Sequence record: MZ031013.1
Source of the DNA: Escherichia phage vB_EcoA_fTuEco01
DNA: 44,320 bases
Direction: 5' to 3' (one strand)
The notes under the pieces are model-generated. The model was given only the letters and a program-made list of their open reading frames with translations. It was not told where the DNA came from and made no database searches. Numbering within the stretch: the first letter of the stretch is position 1; each line of letters starts with the position of its first letter. This document shows positions 1 through 28,948 of this stretch, piece by piece. The translations under genes were made by a program, and so were the position numbers.

Positions 1-110
1 TCTCGCCCTCGCCCTCGCCGGATTTCCCCCATATGGGGCCGCGCTGCGGTTGGCTTGGGAATTGGGCTAGGCTGGGCCGATTTCATCGGGTAGGCTGAGG
101 GTTGCCTTGT
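1..110. repeat. Left genome end, terminal-repeat-like region: (CGCCCT)x3 at 3..19 and perfect palindrome CCCCATATGGGG at 27..38
   Basis: Direct tandem CGCCCT x3 and the palindrome are read directly from the sequence. T7 has an analogous TTCCCCCATAGGGGG-type element in its terminal repeat. The extent of the repeat cannot be set because the right end is not in the window. Confidence 0.4.
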
Positions 111-680
111 ACTAGCTTAGTGGTACACAAGGGGAACGCCTAGGAAGCGCTGGGGCACGCCTTAGTATTGGACAAGGTGATTGCCTTAGTGCAACCGCTT
201 AGGGCTTACACAGGCCGTTTTAGGGCCATTCCTGAGCGTTTGACAGGGTGGGCGGGCGTGGGCTATCTGTTCGTTTCGCTCCACTGCGTTACGCTACACT
301 CACCGCGCTTGTGTACCTTAGGTTATTCCTTGATGGATAGCTTAGGTTAGCCTTAGTGGACTACCTTAGTTAAAGCCTTAGTGCTTAGCTTAGTATCAGC
401 TTAGTAGTGTACCTTAGTCAGACTTAGTGTCTTCTCTTAGTGATTGCACATGCAAGCATGTAAGATGCCATTAGGTCGCGGTCGGTAGACCGCTAAAGAA
501 AGAGAATAGTAATAAGATGCAGTAGGAGGAACACCAGAAACCTAGCCAACCTAGCCTATCCTAGCTCTGTATCTATTGCTTTCCTTAGTCTCACATGTTA
601 GACAACCTATGTTTATCTTAGTAGTTGTGACATGTATCACATAAATAATCTATCTTAGTGAAACTTAGTGTTGACATAGG
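110..680. repeat. Array of more than 15 short (C)CTTAGT(G) repeats at irregular spacing, analogous to the heptamer arrays flanking T7 terminal repeats
   Basis: CTTAGT recurs at about 114, 165, 186, 330-440 (about 10 copies, e.g. gccttagtggactaccttagttaaagccttagtgcttagcttagtatcagcttagtagtgtaccttagtcagacttagtgtcttctcttagtg), 586, 618, 653 and 664. The same motif reappears at the right edge of the window (44049, 44138, 44268). Confidence 0.6.
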
Positions 681-700
681 CAATCAACTGGTATACATTA
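638..700 (+). promoter_or_regulatory. Candidate host sigma70 early promoter: TTGACA (671..676), 17-nt spacer, TACATT (694..699)
   Basis: Perfect -35 hexamer with a 17-nt spacer and a 4/6 -10 hexamer, upstream of the early gene block. No transcript data. Confidence 0.4.
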
Positions 701-829
701 GCAATCACTGAGACGGACCTAGCAAGCTGTCTCAGGTTATAAGCAGGAGAATTGATGCGTAAGCCATAGCTAGTGGATGTAGTCGCATGAAGGCTTGAGT
801 AAGGGGCCGCTTAATACCTTCTTCCTCTG

Positions 830-905
830 GAGACAACGCTTATAACACTGCTCTTTAACAATCTGCTTAGTGTAACCTATGTATGCCGTGGTTAATTACT
901 TATTG
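830..905 (+). promoter_or_regulatory. Early intergenic structured element 1 with conserved core CTCTTTAACAATC (851..863); RNase III-site-like
   Basis: The core is shared with three other early intergenic elements. It also contains tgtaacctatgtatgccgtgg (873..893), which is the near-exact reverse complement of 1644..1663 in element 2. Confidence 0.35.
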
Positions 906-919
906 AATAGGAATTAACT

Positions 920-1015
920 ATGAATTATGAAGAAATGTATGAAGTCTATTTCGACTCATTAGATGAAGGAGAAGAAGCATTATCCTTCGCTGAGTTTGTG
1001 GAGGCCTTATCGTGA
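920..1015 (+). CDS. Hypothetical early protein, 31 aa, acidic
   Basis: ATG at 920; the TGA stop overlaps the GTG start of the next ORF (GTGA). Not in the ORF track because it is under 60 aa. Confidence 0.3.
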   Translation: MNYEEMYEVYFDSLDEGEEALSFAEFVEALS

Positions 1016-1239
1016 AAGTACAGGTAAGGGCTTACAACATGCCAGTTGATGAGATTCAGCACTTTCTAGATAAAGGCTATGATTTATGTAAGATGCGCAC
1101 ACCAGATAACTATGACTACTCACCTAAATATCTGCATTATATTGATCTTAAGATGGGTAAGAAGTTAGTTATTACAGGTACTGCATATAACCGCATTATC
1201 AAAGTTCTTAAAGAGGGTGCTAATCATGACATTAAATAA
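1012..1239 (+). CDS. Hypothetical early protein, 75 aa
   Basis: ORF track entry with a GTG start coupled to the upstream stop. No recognisable motif. Confidence 0.5.
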   Translation: MKVQVRAYNMPVDEIQHFLDKGYDLCKMRTPDNYDYSPKYLHYIDLKMGKKLVITGTAYNRIIKVLKEGANHDIK

Positions 1240-1405
1240 CCGTGAACTGCACGTTCTCTTCACCCTGTTATGTTACATGATTCGTAACAACGAATTACTT
1301 ACAGATGATGAGTTAGCCTTGTATCACCGCTTTCTTAACGAAGGTTGGACCGATATAGTTAATCAATACCGTAACATGATAGATGAGTTGAGGGAGGGTA
1401 AATAA
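1226..1405 (+). CDS. Hypothetical early protein, 59 aa
   Basis: ATG at 1226 preceded by an AAGAGGG RBS at 1211..1217; the track ORF starts at an upstream GTG at 1217. Confidence 0.5.
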   Translation: MTLNNRELHVLFTLLCYMIRNNELLTDDELALYHRFLNEGWTDIVNQYRNMIDELREGK

Positions 1406-1629
1406 TGTATCAACATGAGGTATTCTTTGAATCAGCTAGCGAAGCTATTCGCTTCCGTGATGATATGATGCAAGCTGGTGTAGGCGTTGATGTGTATCAC
1501 TATTTGATAGACTACGACACTGAATATCACCGAGTTACCTTAGTATCTGAGTATGACAACCAAGTCATTACTGAGTATCTAGGTAGTGAAGATTATGATT
1601 ACGATGAAGTAATCACGACAAATCTCTAA
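1405..1629 (+). CDS. Hypothetical early protein, 74 aa, acidic
   Basis: ATG overlaps the upstream stop (TAATG). Rich in Asp/Glu/Tyr. Confidence 0.5.
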   Translation: MYQHEVFFESASEAIRFRDDMMQAGVGVDVYHYLIDYDTEYHRVTLVSEYDNQVITEYLGSEDYDYDEVITTNL

Positions 1630-1637
1630 ATTAACTA

Positions 1638-1666
1638 TTGACAACCACGGCATACAAGGTTACATT
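1638..1666 (+). promoter_or_regulatory. Candidate host sigma70 promoter: TTGACA (1638..1643), 17-nt spacer, TACATT (1661..1666)
   Basis: Same -35/-10 hexamers and spacing as the candidate at 671. Confidence 0.4.
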
Positions 1667-1745
1667 AAGCATCAAGACGGCGACGTCTTTAAACATCCCG
1701 CTCTTTAACAATCGGGCTAGTGCCTTGGTAGGCTAACTACTTACT
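1640..1745 (+). promoter_or_regulatory. Early intergenic structured element 2 with core CTCTTTAACAATC (1701..1713); RNase III-site-like
   Basis: Conserved core plus flanking complementary segments, lying between two early ORFs. Confidence 0.35.
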
Positions 1746-1755
1746 AAGGTGAACT

Positions 1756-1968
1756 ATGAACTACTGCGACATCGCTCACGAATTACGCATGGAACGTGAG
1801 AAACAAGAGAAGCGGATTATCAAGAAGATGGCTGTACTGCTTGCACACTATAAGGCAGACAAACAGCCAACACATGATGAGTTCGTGGACTTCTGTAACA
1901 TGTATCTTAATGTGAGTAAGGCCACTGGTTACAGATGGCTTAAAGCACTGAATGATGGAGAATTGTAG
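1756..1968 (+). CDS. Hypothetical early protein, 70 aa, possible small DNA-binding protein
   Basis: ORF track entry; the C-terminal segment VSKATGYRWLKAL looks helix-turn-helix-like. Weak. Confidence 0.45.
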   Translation: MNYCDIAHELRMEREKQEKRIIKKMAVLLAHYKADKQPTHDEFVDFCNMYLNVSKATGYRWLKALNDGEL

Positions 1969-1971
1969 CAA

Positions 1972-2060
1972 TAAGCCAGCTTAATAGCTGGCCTATCAAG
2001 GCACTAACCTAGCCCTTTAACAATCTGGTTTGTGTCTTGATAGGCTTACTAACAGAAAGG
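1972..2060 (+). promoter_or_regulatory. Early intergenic structured element 3 with core CCCTTTAACAATC (2013..2025)
   Basis: Hairpin gccagc-ttaata-gctggc at 1975..1992; arms cctatcaaggcac (1992..2004) and gtgtcttgatagg (2032..2044) are complementary and enclose the core. Confidence 0.4.
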
Positions 2061-2069
2061 TAAATTATC

Positions 2070-2237
2070 ATGGAAACTTTAATCGTTACCACTACAATCA
2101 ACGGCGTAAGTATCAGCATAACTAAGTATTCTTCCGAAGAGTATGAAGTGAATCACGGAATAGCTGCTATGGTGTATGACAACTTGGCAGATGCCGTGGA
2201 GCATTGGATACAGTCATGTAAGGCTGCAATTAAGTAG
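2070..2237 (+). CDS. Hypothetical early protein, 55 aa
   Basis: ATG at 2070 with upstream AGAAAGG; stop TAG at 2235..2237. Under 60 aa, so not in the track. Confidence 0.4.
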   Translation: METLIVTTTINGVSISITKYSSEEYEVNHGIAAMVYDNLADAVEHWIQSCKAAIK

Positions 2238-2244
2238 GAAAGAT

Positions 2245-2360
2245 AAGGCTGGCACTAGCCAGCCTATCAAGGCACAAGCCACGCTCTTTAACAATATGGG
2301 TAGTCGCTTCTTAGTCTGGATAGGTTAAACCTAGGAGATTCTCTTGAGTCTCCTATAATG
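2245..2360 (+). promoter_or_regulatory. Early intergenic structured element 4 with core CTCTTTAACAATA (2284..2296), a further hairpin at 2334..2353 and a perfect TATAAT at 2354..2359
   Basis: Hairpin ggctgg-cact-agccagcc at 2250..2267; arms cctatcaagg and ctggatagg are near-complementary; ggagattc-tctt-gagtctcc forms a second hairpin. Confidence 0.35.
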
Positions 2361-2391
2361 TAACCTAACTAACTAAATGAGGATTAATAAC

Positions 2392-2748
2392 ATGGCTATG
2401 TCTAATAAGACTTACTCTCAGGTTTACAACACCGCTCATGCTGCATTAGTTGAACGTATCTGGGATGATGCTATTGATTGTATCGATAACGCACATGATG
2501 CAATCCATGAGGTGGCGGATAGTGCTGTACCAATCTATTATGCTGACATCTTCTCGGTGATGGCCAGTGAAGGCATCGACCACTTCTTCGAGGATTCTGG
2601 CTTAATGCCAGACACTAAGGATGTGACGGTCGTACTACAAGCCCGTATTTATGAACAACTCACCATTGATTTATGGGAACGTGTTCAAGATATGATTGAT
2701 GCGTACATCGATTCCGCTGAGGATTCAGAAGAAGAGGAGGAAGAATAA
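2392..2748 (+). CDS. ocr: Ocr-like DNA-mimic anti-restriction protein (T7 gene 0.3 homologue), 118 aa
   Basis: The translation MAMSNKTY...[15 protein letters not shown]...[13 protein letters not shown]...[15 protein letters not shown]...EDSEEEEEE matches T7 Ocr as I recall it, nearly residue for residue in the conserved blocks, including the acidic C-terminus. Start moved to the ATG at 2392 to match T7 MAMSN. Confidence 0.85.
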
Positions 2749-2750
2749 AG

Positions 2751-2867
2751 ATGGAAAGGCAATATAACTTCATCTTCTCAGACGGTGTAACCCTGAAATG
2801 TTCCTTACGATTTGCGCAGATTCGTGAGGAAGTACTAGGAACTACATACAAGCCATTTAGCTGACAC
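2751..2867 (+). CDS. Hypothetical early protein, 38 aa
   Basis: ATG at 2751 immediately after the ocr stop, with AGGAGGAAG inside the ocr 3' end acting as an RBS. Confidence 0.3.
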
Positions 2868-2875
2868 TATAAGAG
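2855..2875 (+). promoter_or_regulatory. Degenerate phage-type promoter (ATTTAGCTGACACTATAAGAG)
   Basis: Matches the SP6-type core GACACTATA with a deviant +1 region. It is the most upstream phage-promoter-like site. Confidence 0.35.
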
Positions 2876-2940
2876 AAGGCTTAACAAGGCGTTGCTACGG
2901 TAGCGCCTGATTAAACTTTCACTTACTAGGAGTTAAGATT

Positions 2941-3168
2941 ATGGATTTAGATAGCATCATTATGGCATTTGCTCTTATTGGCTTAAGCTGGTGCTCCTAT
3001 CACCTTTACCGTGAGTTCTTATTTGATAAAGCTAAACGCAAACTAAGAAAGGAAGGCGGTAATTACCTTTGTATAAGAGGTGGCTTAGTCGAATACATTG
3101 CACCTAACGGCATGGAGTGCGCCATTAACAAAGATGCATTTATAGAGACGTGGCATTACATCAAGTAG
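2941..3168 (+). CDS. Hypothetical small membrane protein, 75 aa
   Basis: N-terminal hydrophobic segment IIMAFALIGLSWCSY; GGAG RBS upstream. Confidence 0.5.
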   Translation: MDLDSIIMAFALIGLSWCSYHLYREFLFDKAKRKLRKEGGNYLCIRGGLVEYIAPNGMECAINKDAFIETWHYIK

Positions 3169-3232
3169 CTAGCCTATAGCCTACCTGTGTGGGCTATGTG
3201 ATATTTACTTACCACTATATAAGGTGACTATT

Positions 3233-4117
3233 ATGACTACTGAAAACACCCTCCTGTCTGTCCGCGAAGCTGCAACCGCTGAGATTAAGCAGCATTTGGA
3301 TAATATCGGCACTTCTTACATCAAAGTAGGTGCTTGTCTGAATGAGTTACGCGGAGACTTCGAAGGTCAAAAAGAGTTCTTAGCCTATGTTGAAGCAGAG
3401 TTCGGCATCAAGAAAGCACAATGCTACAAGCTGATGAGTGTAGCCCGTGTCTTTGAAGGTGACGAACGATTCAAAGGCGTGGCTATGCGTGTAATGCTGG
3501 CGCTTGTTCCTTTCGCTGATGAGAGTATCATCATGGAGAAGGCCGCAGAACTTGCCGCAGAGGGCAAGCTGGACACTAACGCCGTAAACGCCCTAATTGA
3601 GTCTAAGAAAGAGCCAAAGGCCGAGACGGTACAATCTAAGGCTGAGCCAGTAAAACCGCAGGAGAACGCGGCTGAGGCCGCAGAATCACAGGAAACGCAA
3701 GCGCCGCAGGTAGTGCCGCCAATGAGTGAGCCGGACACCGACGAATCCGCACCGTGGGAGGGCGAAAGCAAGCCGGAAGCACCTAAGGCTGCGCCTCTGG
3801 ACAACACTGCTAACACAGAGAACGCCGCCATGGCTGGCCTGTTGGCACAAATTAAGGCACTGACTGAGCAATTACAGGCGGCTAACGACCGCATCGCAGC
3901 TCTAACCAGTGCACGTGAAAGCAAGAAGGCAGCCGCGCCTATGCTCCCACAATTCAAATCCAAATGTTTCTATGCTCGCTTGGGTTTGAGTGCTGAGGAG
4001 GCAGAGAAGAAAACAGCAGTGAACAAGGCACGCCGCGAACTGGTTAAACTGGGATACGGTGAAGGCCATGAGGCATGGCCCTTAATCTCTGAGGCAGTAG
4101 AAGAATTAACTAAGTAA
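3233..4117 (+). CDS. Hypothetical early protein, 294 aa, with a low-complexity Ala/Glu/Pro/Lys-rich linker and a C-terminal coiled-coil
   Basis: ATG at 3233 preceded by AAGGTGA. It sits at the position of T7 gene 0.7 but has no kinase motifs that I can see. Confidence 0.55.
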   Translation: MTTENTLLSVREAATAEIKQHLDNIGTSYIKVGACLNELRGDFEGQKEFLAYVEAEFGIKKAQCYKLMSVARVFEGDERFKGVAMRVMLALVPFADESIIMEKAAELAAEGKLDTNAVNALIESKKEPKAETVQSKAEPVKPQENAAEAAESQETQAPQVVPPMSEPDTDESAPWEGESKPEAPKAAPLDNTANTENAAMAGLLAQIKALTEQLQAANDRIAALTSARESKKAAAPMLPQFKSKCFYARLGLSAEEAEKKTAVNKARRELVKLGYGEGHEAWPLISEAVEELTK

Positions 4118-4180
4118 CCTTATCGGTGGCATCTTCTTAGGTGTCACCTATTAAGGTTTCTTTCACTAGGAGTAAACAAG

Positions 4181-6808
4181 ATGCAAGACCTACACGCTAT
4201 TCAACTTCAACTTGAAGAAGAAATGTTTAACGGCGGTATCCGTCGCTTTGAAGCGGACCAACAACGCCAGATTGCATCCGGTAATGAATCAGACACGGCA
4301 TGGAATCGCCGTTTATTGTCCGAGTTAATCGCGCCAATGGCTGAAGGTATTCAGGCATACAAGGAAGAGTATGAAGGTAAAAGAGGCCGTGCACCGCGTG
4401 CATTAGCTTTCATTAACTGCGTAGAAAACGAAGTGGCAGCATATATCACGATGAAAATCGTTATGGATATGCTGAATACAGACGTTACCTTACAAGCAAT
4501 CGCTATGAATGTAGCGGACCGCATCGAAGACCAAGTACGTTTTAGCAAGCTGGAAGGTCACGCAGCTAAGTACTTTGAGAAAGTGAAGAAGTCGCTTAAG
4601 GCTAGCAAGACTAAATCTTATCGTCATGCGCACAACGTAGCGGTAGTAGCTGAGAAATCTGTTGCTGACCGTGACGCGGATTTCTCCCGTTGGGAGGCAT
4701 GGCCTAAAGATACCTTGCTACAAATCGGTATGACCTTGCTAGAAATACTGGAAAATAGTGTATTCTTCAATGGTCAGCCTGTCTTTCTTCGCACCTTGCG
4801 CACTAATGGTGGCAAGCATGGCGTTTACTACTTACAGACCAGTGAACACGTAGGGGAATGGATTACAGCATTTAAAGAACATGTAGCGCAACTTAGCCCG
4901 GCTTATGCACCTTGCGTTATACCTCCGCGTCCGTGGGTTTCTCCTTTTAATGGCGGTTTTCACACTGAGAAGGTAGCAAGTCGTGTGCGTCTTGTTAAAG
5001 GCAGCCGTGAACACGTCCGCAAGCTGACCAAAAAGCAAATGCCAGCGGTTTACAAGGCTGTTAACGCTTTGCAGGCGACTAAATGGCAGGTTAACAAGGA
5101 AGTTTTACAGGTTGTTGAGGACGTAATACGGCTTGATTTAGGCTATGGCGTACCTTCCTTCAAACCACTCATCGACCGCGAGAACAAGCCAGCTAATCCG
5201 GTGCCGTTAGAGTTCCAGCACCTGCGAGGCCGTGAACTGAAAGAAATGTTAACACCGGAACAATGGCAAGCCTTCATCAACTGGAAAGGTGAATGCACCA
5301 AGCTGTATACCGCTGAGACTAAGCGCGGCAGCAAATCGGCGGCGACCGTCCGCATGGTAGGGCAGGCCCGTAAATACAGCCAATTTGACGCAATATACTT
5401 CGTGTATGCTCTGGACAGCCGCAGCCGCGTCTACGCGCAATCTAGCACGCTCTCTCCGCAATCAAACGACTTAGGCAAGGCATTGCTCCGTTTTACCGAA
5501 GGGCAGCGTCTTGATAGCGCTGAGGCGCTTAAGTGGTTTTTGGTGAACGGGGCTAATAACTGGGGTTGGGATAAGAAAACTTTTGACGTGCGCACCGCTA
5601 ACGTGCTGGATAGTGAATTTCAAGACATGTGCCGCGACATTGCAGCGGATCCGCTGACCTTCACTCAATGGGTAAATGCCGACTCCCCTTACGGCTTCCT
5701 TGCATGGTGCTTTGAATATGCGCGTTATCTGGATGCACTGGATGAAGGCACGCAAGACCAATTCATGACGCACCTCCCAGTCCATCAAGATGGTAGTTGT
5801 TCTGGTATCCAGCACTACAGTGCTATGCTACGCGATGCAGTAGGTGCGAAAGCGGTAAACCTTAAGCCCTCTGACTCACCTCAAGATATTTATGGTGCCG
5901 TTGCGCAGGTAGTAATTCAGAAGAATTATGCATACATGAATGCAGAGGATGCGGAAACCTTCACTTCTGGCAGCGTGACTTTAACAGGTGCAGAACTTCG
6001 TAGCATGGCTAGTGCGTGGGATATGATAGGAATCACTCGCGGCCTGACCAAAAAGCCTGTAATGACACTACCTTATGGCAGCACACGTCTAACCTGCCGT
6101 GAATCAGTGATTGATTATATCGTTGATTTGGAAGAAAAAGAGGCCCAACGGGCTATTGCGGAAGGGCGTACCGCCAATCCTGTACATCCTTTTGATAATG
6201 ACCGCAAAGACAGCCTGACACCTAGCGCAGCTTATAACTATATGACAGCTTTAATCTGGCCTTCTATTTCGGAAGTGGTTAAAGCTCCTATAGTGGCAAT
6301 GAAAATGATTCGTCAGCTTGCACGTTTCGCAGCTAAAAGAAACGAAGGCTTAGAATATCCCTTACCAACTGGCTTCATCTTGCAACAAAAGATAATGGCT
6401 ACCGATATGCTCCGCGTATCCACTTGCTTGATGGGTGAAATCAAGATGAGTCTCCAGATTGAAACAGATGTAGTTGATGAAACGGCAATGATGGGTGCGG
6501 CTGCTCCTAACTTCGTCCATGGTCACGATGCTAGCCACCTGATTCTGACTGTATGTGACCTAGTGGATAAAGGTATTACATCCATTGCAGTCATCCATGA
6601 TTCTTTCGGTACTCATGCAGGACGTACCGCAGACCTGCGGGATAGCTTAAGGGAAGAAATGGTTAAGATGTATCAAAACCATAATGCCCTGCAAAACCTG
6701 CTAGATGTGCACGAAGAGCGTTGGTTAGTAGACACCGGAATCCAAGTACCAGAGCAAGGAGAGTTTGACCTTAACGAAATCTTAGTTTCAGACTATTGTT
6801 TCGCATAA
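4181..6808 (+). CDS. Single-subunit DNA-directed RNA polymerase (T7 gene 1-like), 875 aa
   Basis: [22 protein letters not shown] and the C-terminal ILVSDYCFA correspond to T7 RNAP motifs ([22 protein letters not shown], ...FAFA). Size is close to SP6 RNAP. Confidence 0.95.
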
Positions 6809-6816
6809 TATTAATA

Positions 6817-6845
6817 GGCCATTCCTTAGGGAGTGGCCTTTTTCT
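6817..6845 (+). terminator. Rho-independent terminator after the RNAP gene
   Basis: ggccattcc-ttag-ggagtggcc stem (one G-U pair) followed by TTTTTCTTT. Confidence 0.65.
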
Positions 6846-6882
6846 TTACCTACTACCTGTAACATTTCATTAACATAAAAGT

Positions 6883-6898
6883 GTCTCACATGTGAGAC
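6883..6898. repeat. Conserved perfect palindrome GTCTCACATGTGAGAC, copy 1
   Basis: 16-bp perfect inverted repeat read from the sequence; it ends 2 nt before the promoter at 6901. Confidence 0.8.
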
Positions 6899-6900
6899 TT

Positions 6901-6921
6901 ATTTACCGGACACTATAGGAT
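6901..6921 (+). promoter_or_regulatory. Phage RNAP promoter (ATTTACCGGACACTATAGGAT)
   Basis: Match to the window consensus ATTTACyGGACACTATAGAAG (SP6-type). Confidence 0.75.
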
Positions 6922-6924
6922 AGC

Positions 6925-7065
6925 CGTCGGAGACGGGAAAGAAAGGGAAGATAAAGGATATAAAGGAAGTAATAGGTATTAAAGGTTATATAGGTTATCT
7001 AGGAATACCTAGGAATACCTATTACCTTCTTCCTTCCTCTTATTACCACTTAGAGGAAGGGCAGA
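6925..7065. other. Purine-rich / pyrimidine-rich AT-rich block with internal inverted repeat and tandem TAGGAATACC x2; candidate primary replication origin
   Basis: gggaaagaaagggaagataaaggatataaaggaagtaataggtatt ... aggaatacctaggaatacctattaccttcttccttcctcttattacc; the two halves are near reverse complements. The block is flanked by two phage promoters, as in the T7 primary origin downstream of gene 1. Confidence 0.45.
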
Positions 7066-7073
7066 CCTAGGTT

Positions 7074-7089
7074 GTCTCACATGTGAGAC
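7074..7089. repeat. Conserved palindrome GTCTCACATGTGAGAC, copy 2
   Basis: Perfect 16-bp palindrome, 5 nt upstream of the promoter at 7095. Confidence 0.8.
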
Positions 7090-7094
7090 TTCGT

Positions 7095-7115
7095 ATTTAC
7101 CGGACAGTATAGATA
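7095..7115 (+). promoter_or_regulatory. Phage RNAP promoter variant (ATTTACCGGACAGTATAGATA)
   Basis: Consensus match with C to G at -7 and a deviant initiating region. Confidence 0.6.
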
Positions 7116-7142
7116 AGATTAACTCACTTTGGAGATTTAACC

Positions 7143-7271
7143 ATGCGTAACTTTGAGAAGATGGCCCGTAAAGCTAACCGTTTTGACATAGAAGAAGGGC
7201 AGAAGAAAGGCAAGAAGCTGAATAAGCCTGTCCGTGACCGTACATCTAAACGCGCAGCGTGGGAGTTCTAA
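7143..7271 (+). CDS. Hypothetical small basic protein, 42 aa
   Basis: ATG at 7143, basic composition (MRNFEKMARKANRF...). Under 60 aa, so not in the track. Confidence 0.4.
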   Translation: MRNFEKMARKANRFDIEEGQKKGKKLNKPVRDRTSKRAAWEF

Positions 7272-7274
7272 GTT

Positions 7275-9263
7275 ATGGCTATTATTCAGAATGTACCGTG
7301 TCCTGCTTGCCAAAAGAACGGACATGATATTACTGGCAATCATTTAATGATCTTTGACGACGGGGCAGGATACTGTAACCGTGGTCACTTCCATGATAAC
7401 GGTAAACCTTATTACCACAAGCCAGGGGGTGGCATCGAGATAACCGAATTGCCTATTACTGGCAATATCAAATATACACCTTCTCAATTCAAAGAAATGG
7501 AGAAGGAAGGGAAGGTAAGCGACCCTAAGTTGCGCGCCATCGCACTTGGTGGTATGCGTATGAAAGACCGTTGGGAGGTTATGAATGAGCAAGAAAGGGC
7601 AGACCAAGAAGCAGAGTGGAAACTTGATGTTGAATGGTTCCTCACGCTTAAGCGTAAGAATCTTGTTTCCCGACACATTCGCGGCGACATTTGCGCATTG
7701 TATGATGTACGTGTCGGACACGATGAAGATGGTAGAGTCTCACGGCATTACTATCCACGCTTCGAGAAAGGTGAGCTAGTAGGCGCTAAGTGTCGCACAT
7801 TACCTAAAGACTTTAAGTTTGGTCATTTAGGTAAACTCTTTGGTATGCAAGATCTTTTCGGTATGAATACTTTGTCTCACGTGTTAGACAAGGGAAGACG
7901 AAAGGATTGCTTGCTTATTGTAGGTGGTGAACTTGATGCACTAGCAGCACAGCAAATGCTCCTTGATTCTGCCAAGGGTACTAAGTGGGAAGGCCAGCCT
8001 TACCATGTATGGTCTGTCAATAAAGGTGAGTCTTGCCTTGAAGAGATAGTACAGAACCGTGAACACATCGCCCAATTTAAGAAGATTATATGGGGTTTTG
8101 ATGGCGACGAGGTGGGGCAGAAGCAGAATCAGCAAGCGGCTCGCCTGTTTCCTGGCAAATCCTATATCCTTGAATACCCTTCTGGTTGCAAAGATGCTAA
8201 CAAGGCATTGATGGCTGGCAAGGCTAAAGAGTTTGTTGATGCTTGGTTTAATGCCAAGTCATCTGATGAAGTCTTTGGTAGCCAGATTAAATCTATCGCA
8301 TCTCAAAGGGATAAGCTCAAGGCTGCACGTCCAGAGCAAGGACTATCATGGCCTTGGCCTAAGCTGAACAAGGTAACGCTAGGTATTCGTAAGAACCAGC
8401 TTATCATTGTAGGTGCAGGTTCTGGTGTAGGTAAGACTGAGTTCCTCCGCGAAGTGGTTAAACATCTCATTGAAGAGCACGGTGAATCTGTAGGCATCAT
8501 TTCTACAGAAGACCCGATGGTCAAGGTGTCCCGTGCTTTTATCGGTAAGTGGATTGATAAGCGCATTGAGTTACCGCCAACCAATGACCCGAAAGAAGAC
8601 GGATACCGTGAGGTGTTCGACTACACCGAGGAAGAAGCTAACGCTGCCATTGATTATGTGGCTGATACAGGAAAGCTATTTGTGGCTGACCTAGAAGGCG
8701 ACTATTCTATGGAGAAGGTAGAGCAAACTTGCCTAGAGTTTGAGGCTATGGGCATTTCTAATATCATCATTGATAACTTAACGGGGATTAAATTAGATGA
8801 GCGTGCTTTTGGTGGGAAGGTTGGTGCACTTGATGAATGCGTCAAACGAATTGGTACTATCAAAGACCGACATGCGGTTACGATTTTCCTTGTCTCTCAC
8901 CTTACACGTCCTCCGGCAAACCGTACCCAACACGAAGAAGGTGGCGAAGTTATCCTTTCTGACTTCCGAGGCTCAGGCGCTATCGGATTCTGGGCATCTT
9001 ACGCCTTGGGGATTGAGCGTAATACAAGAGCTGAAACGCTTGATGAAAGGACTACCACGTACATCTCGTGTGTCAAAGACCGCGATCAAGGTATCTACAC
9101 TGGAACCAAGGTCATGCTTAAGGGTGACATTCAAACCGGACGTTTAATGGAACCACAAGCTAGAACAAGGTCATTTGATACAGGTGAAACAAGGCAGCAA
9201 GAGGTGCCTGATTTACCGGACACTATAGAAGAGACAACCTTTGACGATGAACAGGAGTTTTAA
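7275..9263 (+). CDS. DNA primase/helicase (T7 gene 4-like), 662 aa
   Basis: N-terminal zinc ribbon CPACQ...CNRGH; Walker A GAGSGVGKTEF; acidic C-terminus DDEQEF ending in Phe, as in T7 gp4 (...TDF). Confidence 0.95.
   Translation: MAIIQNVPCPACQKNGHDITGNHLMIFDDGAGYCNRGHFHDNGKPYYHKPGGGIEITELPITGNIKYTPSQFKEMEKEGKVSDPKLRAIALGGMRMKDRWEVMNEQERADQEAEWKLDVEWFLTLKRKNLVSRHIRGDICALYDVRVGHDEDGRVSRHYYPRFEKGELVGAKCRTLPKDFKFGHLGKLFGMQDLFGMNTLSHVLDKGRRKDCLLIVGGELDALAAQQMLLDSAKGTKWEGQPYHVWSVNKGESCLEEIVQNREHIAQFKKIIWGFDGDEVGQKQNQQAARLFPGKSYILEYPSGCKDANKALMAGKAKEFVDAWFNAKSSDEVFGSQIKSIASQRDKLKAARPEQGLSWPWPKLNKVTLGIRKNQLIIVGAGSGVGKTEFLREVVKHLIEEHGESVGIISTEDPMVKVSRAFIGKWIDKRIELPPTNDPKEDGYREVFDYTEEEANAAIDYVADTGKLFVADLEGDYSMEKVEQTCLEFEAMGISNIIIDNLTGIKLDERAFGGKVGALDECVKRIGTIKDRHAVTIFLVSHLTRPPANRTQHEEGGEVILSDFRGSGAIGFWASYALGIERNTRAETLDERTTTYISCVKDRDQGIYTGTKVMLKGDIQTGRLMEPQARTRSFDTGETRQQEVPDLPDTIEETTFDDEQEF
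9211..9231 (+). promoter_or_regulatory. Phage RNAP promoter embedded in the 3' end of the primase/helicase gene
   Basis: ATTTACCGGACACTATAGAAG is a perfect consensus; in frame it encodes LPDTIEE. Confidence 0.7.
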
Positions 9264-28226: not shown

Positions 28227-28948
28227 TGGCTATAGGTTCAGCCGTTATGGCTGGTATGTCTTCTATTGGTAGCATGTTTGCAGGCAGTGGTGCAGCAGCC
28301 GCTGCTGGAGGTGCTGCCGCAGGTGGCGGAGGTTTGCTAGGTTCACTAGGTGGATTCCTAAGTGGCTCTACTGCTGGTTTCTCTAATGCTGGCCTTCTTG
28401 GTGCTGGCCTTCAAGGGTTAGGCTTGATTGGTGATCTATTTGGTGGAAGTGATGAAGCCAAGGCGATGAAGAAAGCACAAGAAGAGCAATGGCGGCAGCA
28501 GCTTATTGCTACACAAGAGGCGTACAAGACAGTGGCAGACGCAGAACGTTCTGCTGCTAAACAATATCATGCAGATGCAATCAGTAATCAGGCTTCACTG
28601 CTACAGCAGCGAGCACAGGTTGCATTACTTGCTGGGGCTACTGGTACTGGTGGTAATTCTGTGTCCTCTATGCTTAATGACTTAGCAGCAGATGGCGGCA
28701 GGAACCAGAGTACCATCATTGATAACTATGAGAATCAGAAGATTAATTTCACCAACCAACTTAAGTCTATCCAACGTGGTGGTCAGATGCAGATGCGTGA
28801 GTTTAAGAAGCCTTCTGCTATGAGTACCTTGGTTCAAGGTATTCCAAGTCTGGCATCTGCCTATGTAACTGGTAGTAAGTCTGGCAAGGCATTGGGTAAA
28901 GCCTTAACTGATTCTCGTACATATTCATCTGGAACAAGAGGTATTTAA
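28226..28948 (+). CDS. Internal virion protein with Gly-rich hydrophobic N-terminus (T7 gp14-like), 240 aa
   Basis: TAATG overlap; N-terminal AGMSSIGSMFAGSGAAAAAGGAAAGGGGLLGSLGGFLSG is membrane-inserting-like; position in the internal-core gene block. Confidence 0.65.
   Translation: MAIGSAVMAGMSSIGSMFAGSGAAAAAGGAAAGGGGLLGSLGGFLSGSTAGFSNAGLLGAGLQGLGLIGDLFGGSDEAKAMKKAQEEQWRQQLIATQEAYKTVADAERSAAKQYHADAISNQASLLQQRAQVALLAGATGTGGNSVSSMLNDLAADGGRNQSTIIDNYENQKINFTNQLKSIQRGGQMQMREFKKPSAMSTLVQGIPSLASAYVTGSKSGKALGKALTDSRTYSSGTRGI

Follow-up and report, generated by a model that had tools for sequence, protein, structure and literature searches.

The left end of Escherichia phage vB_EcoA_fTuEco01 (MZ031013.1), analyzed here as one stretch of 44,320 nucleotides (nt; hereafter the window), carries four intergenic elements between positions 830 and 2,360 that are built around a shared short core. 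We find that this core is the boxA of the host ribosomal RNA (rRNA) operons (rrn), a predicted site for NusB/NusE, and that the arms flanking it pair mainly between neighboring elements, across a gene cassette, and not within one element. The order along the early operon is boxA, 5' strand, cargo, 3' strand, boxA, repeated, like that of an rRNA operon. Judging by this layout and by the relatives of the phage, it is reasonably probable that the early operon mimics an rrn operon, with boxA recruiting Nus factors and ribonuclease III (RNase III) cutting the long-range helices, which would release the cassettes as messenger RNAs (mRNAs).

The region is the left-end early region, in which small + strand open reading frames (ORFs) are followed by an ocr-like gene. 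A megablast search with 700-2400 matched 85 phage records, the best being K1E/K1-5-type coliphages of the genus Vectrevirus, podoviruses related to Salmonella phage SP6. A preliminary description had located the core at 851, 1701, 2013, and 2284, and so it stands: three copies, at 851, 1701, and 2284, read exactly CTCTTTAACAAT, the one at 2013 (CCCTTTAACAAT) departs from it at one position, and all four lie between genes on the + strand. The 13-mer containing it, GCTCTTTAACAAT, is identical at 13/13 positions to the leader boxA of Escherichia coli K-12 rrnB, the spacer boxA of which is GCTCTTTAAAAAT. Exact matches to the gamma-proteobacterial boxA consensus GYTCTTTAANA (PMC5725501) number only three on both strands of the 44-kilobase (kb) window, against a chance expectation of 0.21, and none of 100 shuffles gave three or more. 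In the RNA, boxA is bound by NusB/NusE, and from there the Nus-factor complex assembles on the RNA polymerase of the host (PMC5725501, PMC10250234); for the RNA polymerase of T7, evidence has been noted that Nus factors are not engaged (PMC5725501). The four copies lie 3' of the best two sigma-70-like promoters (671-699 and 1638-1666; consensus predictions) and 5' of the first phage-promoter-like site, at 2857; in a scan of the rest of the window, boxA was absent from the later regions. Since that first SP6-type promoter-like site directly follows the ocr cassette, all boxA copies precede the phage-transcribed region, and their confinement to the early region fits a signal read by the host polymerase alone. 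The preliminary description was correct in judging the shared primary sequence stronger than structure alone would need, and the identity of the core with boxA accounts for the conservation that had puzzled it. K1E (L002, AM084415) carries the consensus base at the position of the element 3 mismatch. Its fourth boxA (2237-2250, GCTCTTTTAACAAT) has one additional T, and is either a degenerate site or the product of a homopolymer sequencing error.

The arms follow a simple rule: the sequence 3' of one boxA pairs with that 5' of the following boxA. A reverse-orientation repeat of 873..893 at 1644..1663 had been described before; it is real but longer (864-893/1643-1671), and what had been counted as a mismatch is a 1-nt insertion or deletion. 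As RNA, these segments form helix 1, with 29 base pairs (bp), one G-U pair, one bulged base, and an energy of -48.1 kcal/mol, and the global minimum free energy fold of 780-2400 includes this helix, enclosing the four ORFs of 920-1629. Helix 2 (1715-1739/1985-2009) has about 21 bp (-42.7 kcal/mol) and helix 3 (2027-2045/2256-2280) about 19-21 bp (-42.0 kcal/mol). When the 45 nt after each boxA were scanned without bias against the whole window, the best partner window-wide was 1621-1695 for element 1 (z = -7.4), 1966-2025 for element 2 (z = -5.1), and 2236-2295 for element 3 (z = -6.5), and the same whole-window scan returned no distant partner for the sequence 3' of element 4. For element 2, the second-best partner (28846-28905) was set aside as a chance match, scattered and located within a coding region. 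The 5' strand begins 1-3 nt after boxA in elements 1-3, and each 3' strand sits just past the stop codon of the last gene in the cassette, immediately before the next boxA. The features are collected in Table 1.

Table 1. Signals, helix strands, and genes of the early region, in window coordinates
Feature	Position	Strand	Basis or remark
Early promoter candidate, sigma-70-type, main	671..699	+	TTGACA, 17 nt, TACATT; consensus match only
Element 1 boxA GCTCTTTAACAAT	850..862	+	Exact consensus match; 13/13 identity with rrnB leader boxA
Arm A, helix 1 5' strand	864..893	+	Starts 1 nt past element 1 boxA
Cassette A cargo: four small ORFs, function unknown	920..1629	+	ORF list; PHROG families of unknown function
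Arm A', helix 1 3' strand	1643..1671	+	Overlaps second sigma-70-like promoter
Small hairpin AAGACG-GCGA-CGTCTT	1674..1689	+	Local and global folds; 10 nt 5' of element 2 boxA
Element 2 boxA GCTCTTTAACAAT	1700..1712	+	Exact consensus match
Arm B (variant B1), helix 2 5' strand	1715..1739	+	Repeats, duplex energy, covariation
Cassette B cargo 1: ORF of 70 amino acids (aa), function unknown	1756..1968	+	ORF list, PHROGs
GC hairpin GCCAGCT/AGCTGGC, directly 5' of arm B'	1975..1992	+	Local and global folds
Arm B', helix 2 3' strand or 5' arm of element 3 local hairpin	1985..2009	+	Core GCCTATCAAGGCAC
Element 3 boxA variant GCCCTTTAACAAT	2012..2024	+	One mismatch to consensus
Arm B (variant B2), helix 3 5' strand or 3' arm of element 3 local hairpin	2027..2045	+	Repeats, duplex energy
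Cassette B cargo 2: 55-aa ORF, function unknown	2070..2237	+	ORF list, PHROGs
GC hairpin GGCTGGC-ACTA-GCCAGCC, 5' of second arm B'	2247..2264	+	Local and global folds
Second arm B', helix 3 3' strand	2256..2280	+	Repeats, duplex energy, covariation
Element 4 boxA GCTCTTTAACAAT, final one of array	2283..2295	+	Exact consensus match
Local bipartite hairpin (lower stem, internal loop, 10-bp upper stem)	2317..2371	+	z = -3.0 alone
Ocr-like anti-restriction gene, first gene past boxA array	2392..2748	+	phrog_2568, E = 4.9e-49; annotation of relatives

The same bracketing is found in the relatives. We compared 23 related loci, including K1E, K1-5, SP6, and 19 distinct relatives from IMG/VR. Over 40 adjacent pairs of arms the mean duplex energy is -44.2 kcal/mol, against -20.5 kcal/mol for local pairing, -20.4 kcal/mol for non-adjacent pairs, and -17.4 kcal/mol for shuffles, and a strong helix is present in 38 of the 40. 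The elements of SP6 read X-boxA-B, B'-boxA-A, and A'-boxA-C, and those of K1-5 read X-boxA-A, A'-boxA-B, and B'-boxA-C; in such hybrid elements a local hairpin is impossible, yet all cassettes are bracketed. At least four unrelated arm sequences follow the rule, namely, A, B, D (in locus L023), and E (in Pectobacterium phage PP1). The E arms of PP1 bracket a cassette with gene family F3, which elsewhere is bracketed by A arms; every cassette between A arms contains both F2 and F3. At least seven cargo genes, unrelated to one another, are found singly between B arms, which hence form a generic slot and are not hitchhiking with one gene. Between relatives, insertions and deletions of cassettes span boxA to boxA (the window has one B cassette more than locus L006), and the order of the cassettes differs (B then A in SP6, A then B in K1-5). 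No inverted cassettes were seen among the loci compared, and the distance from the 3' strand to the next boxA ranges across loci from about 2 to 45 nt. As boxA is the only sequence common to all junctions, cassettes would be gained, lost, or rearranged by recombination through it, which fits the indels and the differing orders just described.

Substitutions in the arms largely preserve pairing. When the unique arm pairs are aligned (30 base pairs in helix A and 19 in helix B), 98.3% of the cells are paired for helix A, with both sides changed at 2 pairs, and 96.8% for helix B, with both sides changed at 4 pairs; slid controls gave 25-44%. G-U cells number 33 and A-C cells 7. Pairing on the + strand therefore exceeds that on the - strand, where it is 94.3% and 90.5% for helices A and B, respectively, which favors a constraint at the level of RNA.

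These data bear directly on the model of the preliminary description, which had likened the elements to the RNase III sites of T7 and had given each core about 90 bp of local bipartite stem. T7 processing sites are local hairpins. The pairing then quoted, cctatcaaggcac with gtgtcttgatagg (element 3, 1991-2009 with 2027-2045), is real and makes a 19-bp stem with the core in a 17-nt loop (-35.6 kcal/mol; fold z = -4.5), and element 3 of K1E also forms a local hairpin. Element 1, however, folds no better than shuffles (z = +0.2), and element 2 folds weakly (z = -1.4), its predicted helices failing to join both flanks. A 135-nt region around element 4 does fold (z = -5.6), mostly through other helices, namely, the GC hairpin at 2247-2264 and a separate bipartite hairpin at 2317-2371. 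This second hairpin, which separates the boxA of element 4 from the ocr-like gene, is conserved in 9 relatives, with double changes at 5 pairs. A T7-type site, that is, a self-contained hairpin of about 20 bp with an internal loop, was found only in the element 3 hairpin and in 2317-2371. What survives of the comparison is that these are intercistronic signals of a host-transcribed polycistronic early region with predicted long double-stranded RNA segments of 19-30 bp, plausible substrates of RNase III, although not as local hairpins. That every element is a self-contained RNase III hairpin with the core as part of the recognition signal is therefore highly improbable, and the comparative data largely refute it: the mean local duplex energy equals that of the non-adjacent controls, and no SP6 or K1-5 element has matching arms. 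The one clear local hairpin arises because two B-type cassettes adjoin at element 3, and it is to be expected wherever they do. Nor does the core behave as an RNase III determinant, since in T7 it lies outside the R0.3 hairpin and its sequence is that of the rrn boxA.

Comparison with rrnB shows how closely the layout corresponds. There, the leader boxA (417-429) is followed by a 5' strand at 428-472 that pairs with 2106-2149, just past 16S (-57.9 kcal/mol); the flank of the spacer boxA pairs just past 23S (-45.5 kcal/mol); and a hairpin-forming sequence lies 5' of the leader boxA. Phage and rrn share the boxA 13-mer, a 5' strand that begins where boxA ends, a 3' strand just past the cargo, and a new boxA before each bracketed unit (in rrnB, the leader and spacer boxA). 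The phage hairpin at 1674-1689, 5' of the element 2 boxA, resembles the boxB hairpin in position, and the phage helices, at 19-30 bp, compare with those of rRNA, for which lengths of 25-40 bp and 27 bp are reported. RNase III cleaves leader-trailer helices, that of 16S needing more than 17 bp (PMC10250234), a length that all three window helices exceed. By these likenesses, the long-range helices of the phage are probable RNase III substrates. The phage differs in that it has three successive brackets and a terminal local hairpin, lacks a recognizable boxC (arm B2 only shows a weak resemblance to TGTGT), and uses one 3' strand also as promoter-like sequence. Moreover, its cargo consists of translated mRNA cassettes of 0.2-0.7 kb and not of structural RNA. 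Since small protein-coding ORFs take the place of rRNA, we regard the early region as rrn operon-like and not as a member of that class.

From these parts we can propose a sequence of events. A transcript carrying elements 1 to 4 would be made from the promoter at 671-699, which matches 10/12 consensus positions and is tied best on the + strand within 1-7200. Nus factors would load at boxA and make the host polymerase resistant to Rho, and the boxA-proximal 5' strand would be kept tethered near the RNA exit channel until the 3' strand emerges and a helix of 19-30 bp can form. In rrn, the antitermination complex may promote formation of the leader-trailer helix, with boxA tethered to the polymerase (PMC10250234, PMC5725501). 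RNase III would then cut the helix and release a cassette mRNA with paired ends. When Nus factors hold boxA and the polymerase together in a loop, translation of the gene that follows can be repressed, as in the lambda N leader, and such repression persists with 100 nt inserted between boxA and the ribosome-binding site (PMC5725501). Because the loop can repress, there is a rationale for a cut between these two sites, which would sever the boxA tether and remove the Nus loop; the next boxA, 2-45 nt further 3', would reload the complex. The fourth boxA would be followed, T7 fashion, by the local bipartite hairpin before ocr. As a side consequence, phages would be able to exchange units of arm, cargo, and complementary arm as cassettes, the invariant boxA linking one unit to the next.

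Several points weigh against this account. The boxA of element 3 is one position off consensus, and no helix is present in 2 of the 40 adjacent pairs (L012 E1-E2 and PP1 E1-E2). Measures of pair count and pair type were not significant against shuffles (86/500 and about 100/500). The arm alignments were extracted around the proposed helices and are thus biased toward structure; many of the loci are close relatives, so that the compensatory changes represent few independent events; and apparent covariation could also result from concerted evolution of short inverted repeats. Arm A' overlaps a sigma-70-like promoter (TTGACA at 1638-1643 and TACATT at 1661-1666, 10/12 positions, the same hexamers as in 671-699), as do D' and E', and their conservation may thus in part have another cause. 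Competing local folds or ribosomes may block long-range pairing in vivo, and at element 3 the local hairpin of -35.6 kcal/mol competes with about -40 kcal/mol for the long-range alternative. The B helix, at 19-21 bp, is near the lower size limit of RNase III substrates. Finally, rrn requires its leader-trailer helix even apart from RNase III (PMC10250234), and a helix in the phage thus need not imply cleavage.

This last point also speaks for an alternative that we consider unlikely though it shares all the structural evidence, namely, that boxA is a Nus site and the helices are real RNA structures with a job other than RNase III processing. Pairing of the 5' and 3' untranslated regions (UTRs) could stabilize or insulate the mRNAs, hide untranslated RNA from Rho or RNase E, or, together with the Nus loop, time or repress translation, as at suhB and lambda N; boxA-Nus repression tolerates a 100-nt insert, and in the window the start codons lie 56-109 nt from boxA. 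As is known, however, E. coli RNase III generally cleaves near-perfect duplexes of 29 bp and T7 relatives use the enzyme on their early mRNA, and repressing early genes seems counterproductive for a lytic phage. A purely DNA-level origin appears less probable still. The succession of direct repeat, inverted repeat, cargo, inverted repeat, and direct repeat, the boxA-to-boxA indels and differing cassette orders described above, and the finding of B-type brackets around different cargo in several phage families would suit mobile cassettes that insert at boxA or recombine through it and leave it as a direct repeat on either side; the arms would be their terminal inverted repeats or scars of recombination and have no function in RNA. 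Yet compensatory and wobble changes keep the + strand RNA paired, at least four unrelated arm sequences argue against a single recombinase site, and the variable spacing between the 3' strand and boxA is unlike a target-site duplication. In addition, PHROG assignments gave no transposase or integrase in the early region, inverted cassettes were not encountered, and the identical layout is found in rrnB, which is not mobile.

Very unlikely, in our view, is that Nus factors do not use the core and that it serves a phage-encoded or other host factor or is a mere recombination linker. Its conservation in relatives does reach 3-4 nt past the published consensus (AAT.TGG), and the single boxA of T7 is not known to have a phenotype. 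Against this stand the full identity with the host rrn leader boxA, the presence of the motif, in host-appropriate sequence, in phages of five host genera (Escherichia, Salmonella, Pectobacterium, Edwardsiella, and Vibrio), its confinement to the region predicted to be transcribed by the host polymerase, and the fact that boxA alone suffices for Nus recruitment at suhB and at arrays of clustered regularly interspaced short palindromic repeats (CRISPR).

Among known phage systems, T7 comes closest to the end of the array. Its single boxA, GCTCTTTAACAATCTGG, at 813-825, has long been noted and is closely followed by the R0.3 hairpin and gene 0.3 (ocr). The order boxA, R0.3, gene 0.3 is matched by element 4, the 2317-2371 hairpin, and the ocr homologue, and in both phages the signals lie between the cistrons of an early polycistronic RNA made by the host polymerase. 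Apart from boxA, the T7 sites and the window elements share no sequence. In contrast to T7, in which no long-range partner was found for the 3' flank of boxA, the window repeats boxA at each junction and has cassette-spanning helices at 3 of 4 junctions. The lambda nutL/N leader likewise places a boxA complex 5' of an RNase III-type structure and a ribosome-binding site, and Wilson et al. in 2002 reportedly found that RNase III relieves the repression of the N leader. The window boxA, however, has the rrn consensus where lambda has a shorter variant, and no N-type boxB follows it; the hairpins at 1674-1689, 1975-1992, and 2247-2264 lie 5', as in rrn. No early ORF was named an N-like protein by PHROGs, a remote N homologue not having been searched for. 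The BoxA sites of CRISPR arrays and of the suhB 5' UTR are, as here, stand-alone consensus sites in transcripts other than rRNA, where they recruit Nus factors that counter or modulate termination by Rho, but they are single, promoter proximal, and without bracketing helices, whereas those of the window are iterated and coupled to helices. Finally, the PeSL units of T4-type phages (Arbiol et al., 2010) are said to be mobile combinations of early promoter and stem-loop that mediate modular shuffling. There, too, short conserved signals flank variable small early ORFs at gene-exchange boundaries, although these signals consist of promoters and terminator-like stem-loops instead of boxA and cassette-spanning helices, and they occur in other phage groups.

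Similar arrays exist outside Vectrevirus. Edwardsiella phage DT115P1 has the same layout (-51.6 kcal/mol), Vibrio phage VEN (Colwellvirinae) has two brackets (-55.3 and -48.3 kcal/mol), and two uncultivated contigs of about 100 kb also share the layout. The T5-like Pectobacterium phage My1 (L135) carries two successive boxA brackets in its terminal repeat (reverse strand, 5804-6587), one with a perfect 25-bp helix that contains a B-like core, CCTGATAGG, and the second with a helix of about 20 bp. The terminal repeat is the region that T5-like phages inject first. Erwinia phage VyarbaL has a single boxA, and the array is hence not universal in the subfamily. A conserved B core, CTTGATAGGC/GCCTATCAAG, is found again in these families, with covariation in the more distal part of the helix. 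This core is absent from T7 1-7000, so that the idea of its presence in a T7 RNase III site was rejected, and rrnB has a single one-mismatch match to it, inside 23S.

Some further observations concern these relatives. The B core and the leader that follows it (TTACTAAC...AAGGT...ATCATG, with the ribosome-binding site) are found at 1724-1755 and 2036-2069 of the window and in loci L148 and L149, conserved before unrelated cargo genes in several phage families, and look like a portable 5' UTR. In an uncultivated contig of 108 kb (L124), modules at 4207, 4531, and 5540 consist of a sigma-70-like promoter, a GCTGA-GAAA-TCAGC hairpin, and boxA, with the hairpin and boxA in the rrn-like order of boxB and boxA, and one module is followed by a 25-bp long-range helix over 770 nt. 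Neither L124 nor the contig L042 matched any entry of the phage collection. The pattern GCTCTTTAACAATNTG occurs in at least 120 viral contigs of IMG/VR, many of them T7 sized (39-41 kb) with a single site at about 750-830. An rrn-consensus boxA thus appears, from sequence matches, to be common in the early leaders of phages.

More tentatively, virulent phages of several families might build their first-expressed region as an rRNA operon mimic, made of portable cassettes, each with a 5' strand, a ribosome-binding site, a cargo ORF, and a 3' strand, that RNase III excises and for which boxA provides the microhomology for swapping inside one phage family or from one family to another. This doubtful extension would take in SP6/K1E-like, Vibrio, and Edwardsiella podoviruses and one T5-like siphovirus, with Nus factors perhaps acting as chaperones of each helix. 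It is possible, at a similarly speculative level, that the cassettes carry new early genes, some of which may act against host defense, as an integron-like system at the front end of the genome.

BoxA/Nus antitermination is textbook knowledge for rRNA operons and lambdoid phages and has only recently been extended to CRISPR arrays and suhB. Like boxA and Nus antitermination, leader-trailer helices and the RNase III sites of T7 are known already; what would be new is the deployment of the rrn design, as iterated boxA with cassette-spanning helices, in translated early operons of phages. Our literature searches pairing boxA with T7-like, SP6-like, or virulent phages returned no paper linking them, the original SP6/K1-5 genome papers not being covered. 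Likewise, the RefSeq records of K1E, K1-5, SP6, and T7 have no RNA features annotated at the corresponding sites, and a permissive Rfam scan of 1-8000 gave nothing at the elements, only chance matches of microRNA type to a hairpin at 2864-2935. If the rRNA operon-like account is true, these early regions offer a natural system for testing the Nus complex as an RNA chaperone of long-range helices and for testing whether RNase III cleavage resets that complex. It would also explain the processivity of host polymerase over the first-transcribed region, which in T7-type phages is coupled to genome entry, as well as the mosaic gene content of the early region and where new early genes slot in. In engineering, boxA with a B-type bracket might serve as a portable cassette for expressing phage genes that the host polymerase transcribes.

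The remaining features of the region may be listed briefly. The ORFs of cassette A are at 920-1015, 1012-1239, 1217-1405, and 1405-1629. Transcripts from the promoter at 1638-1666 would lack the 3' strand of helix 1 and start with the hairpin at 1674-1689 and boxA; this promoter, hairpin, and boxA together resemble an rrn module. The unrelated D' and E' arms of relatives also carry TTGACA/TTGCAT and TACATT (cf. the 5' flanks of L023 and L025). Sequences resembling promoters of an SP6-type phage RNA polymerase (GACACTATAG/A...) are located at 2857-2876, 6903, 9213, 10061, 15503, 18668, and 40961. A further phage-promoter-like sequence, TTAGGTTACATTATAGGAGA, on the - strand at 2349-2368, in the 3' half of the 2317-2371 hairpin, was considered as a signal and rejected, because it is not conserved in SP6-type relatives; it is probably a coincidence. 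The CTTAGTG sequence occurs inside arm A. Two more intercistronic hairpins lie 3' of the array, at 2864-2935 (the weak microRNA-family matches are on both strands) and at 3175-3198 (terminator-like), and may be extra local processing or termination signals. The SP6-type RNA polymerase ORF (4181-6808, 875 aa) is, over its first 300 residues, 100% identical to that of a K1E isolate, and is directly followed at 6816-6839 by a GC-rich hairpin with a T-run, a candidate early terminator like TE of T7. At the extreme left end, CTTAGT (often CCTTAGT or CTTAGTG) has 15 + strand copies in the first 700 bases (120-680), against 0.32 per kb elsewhere, and these copies may be analogous to the short repeats near the ends of the T7 genome.

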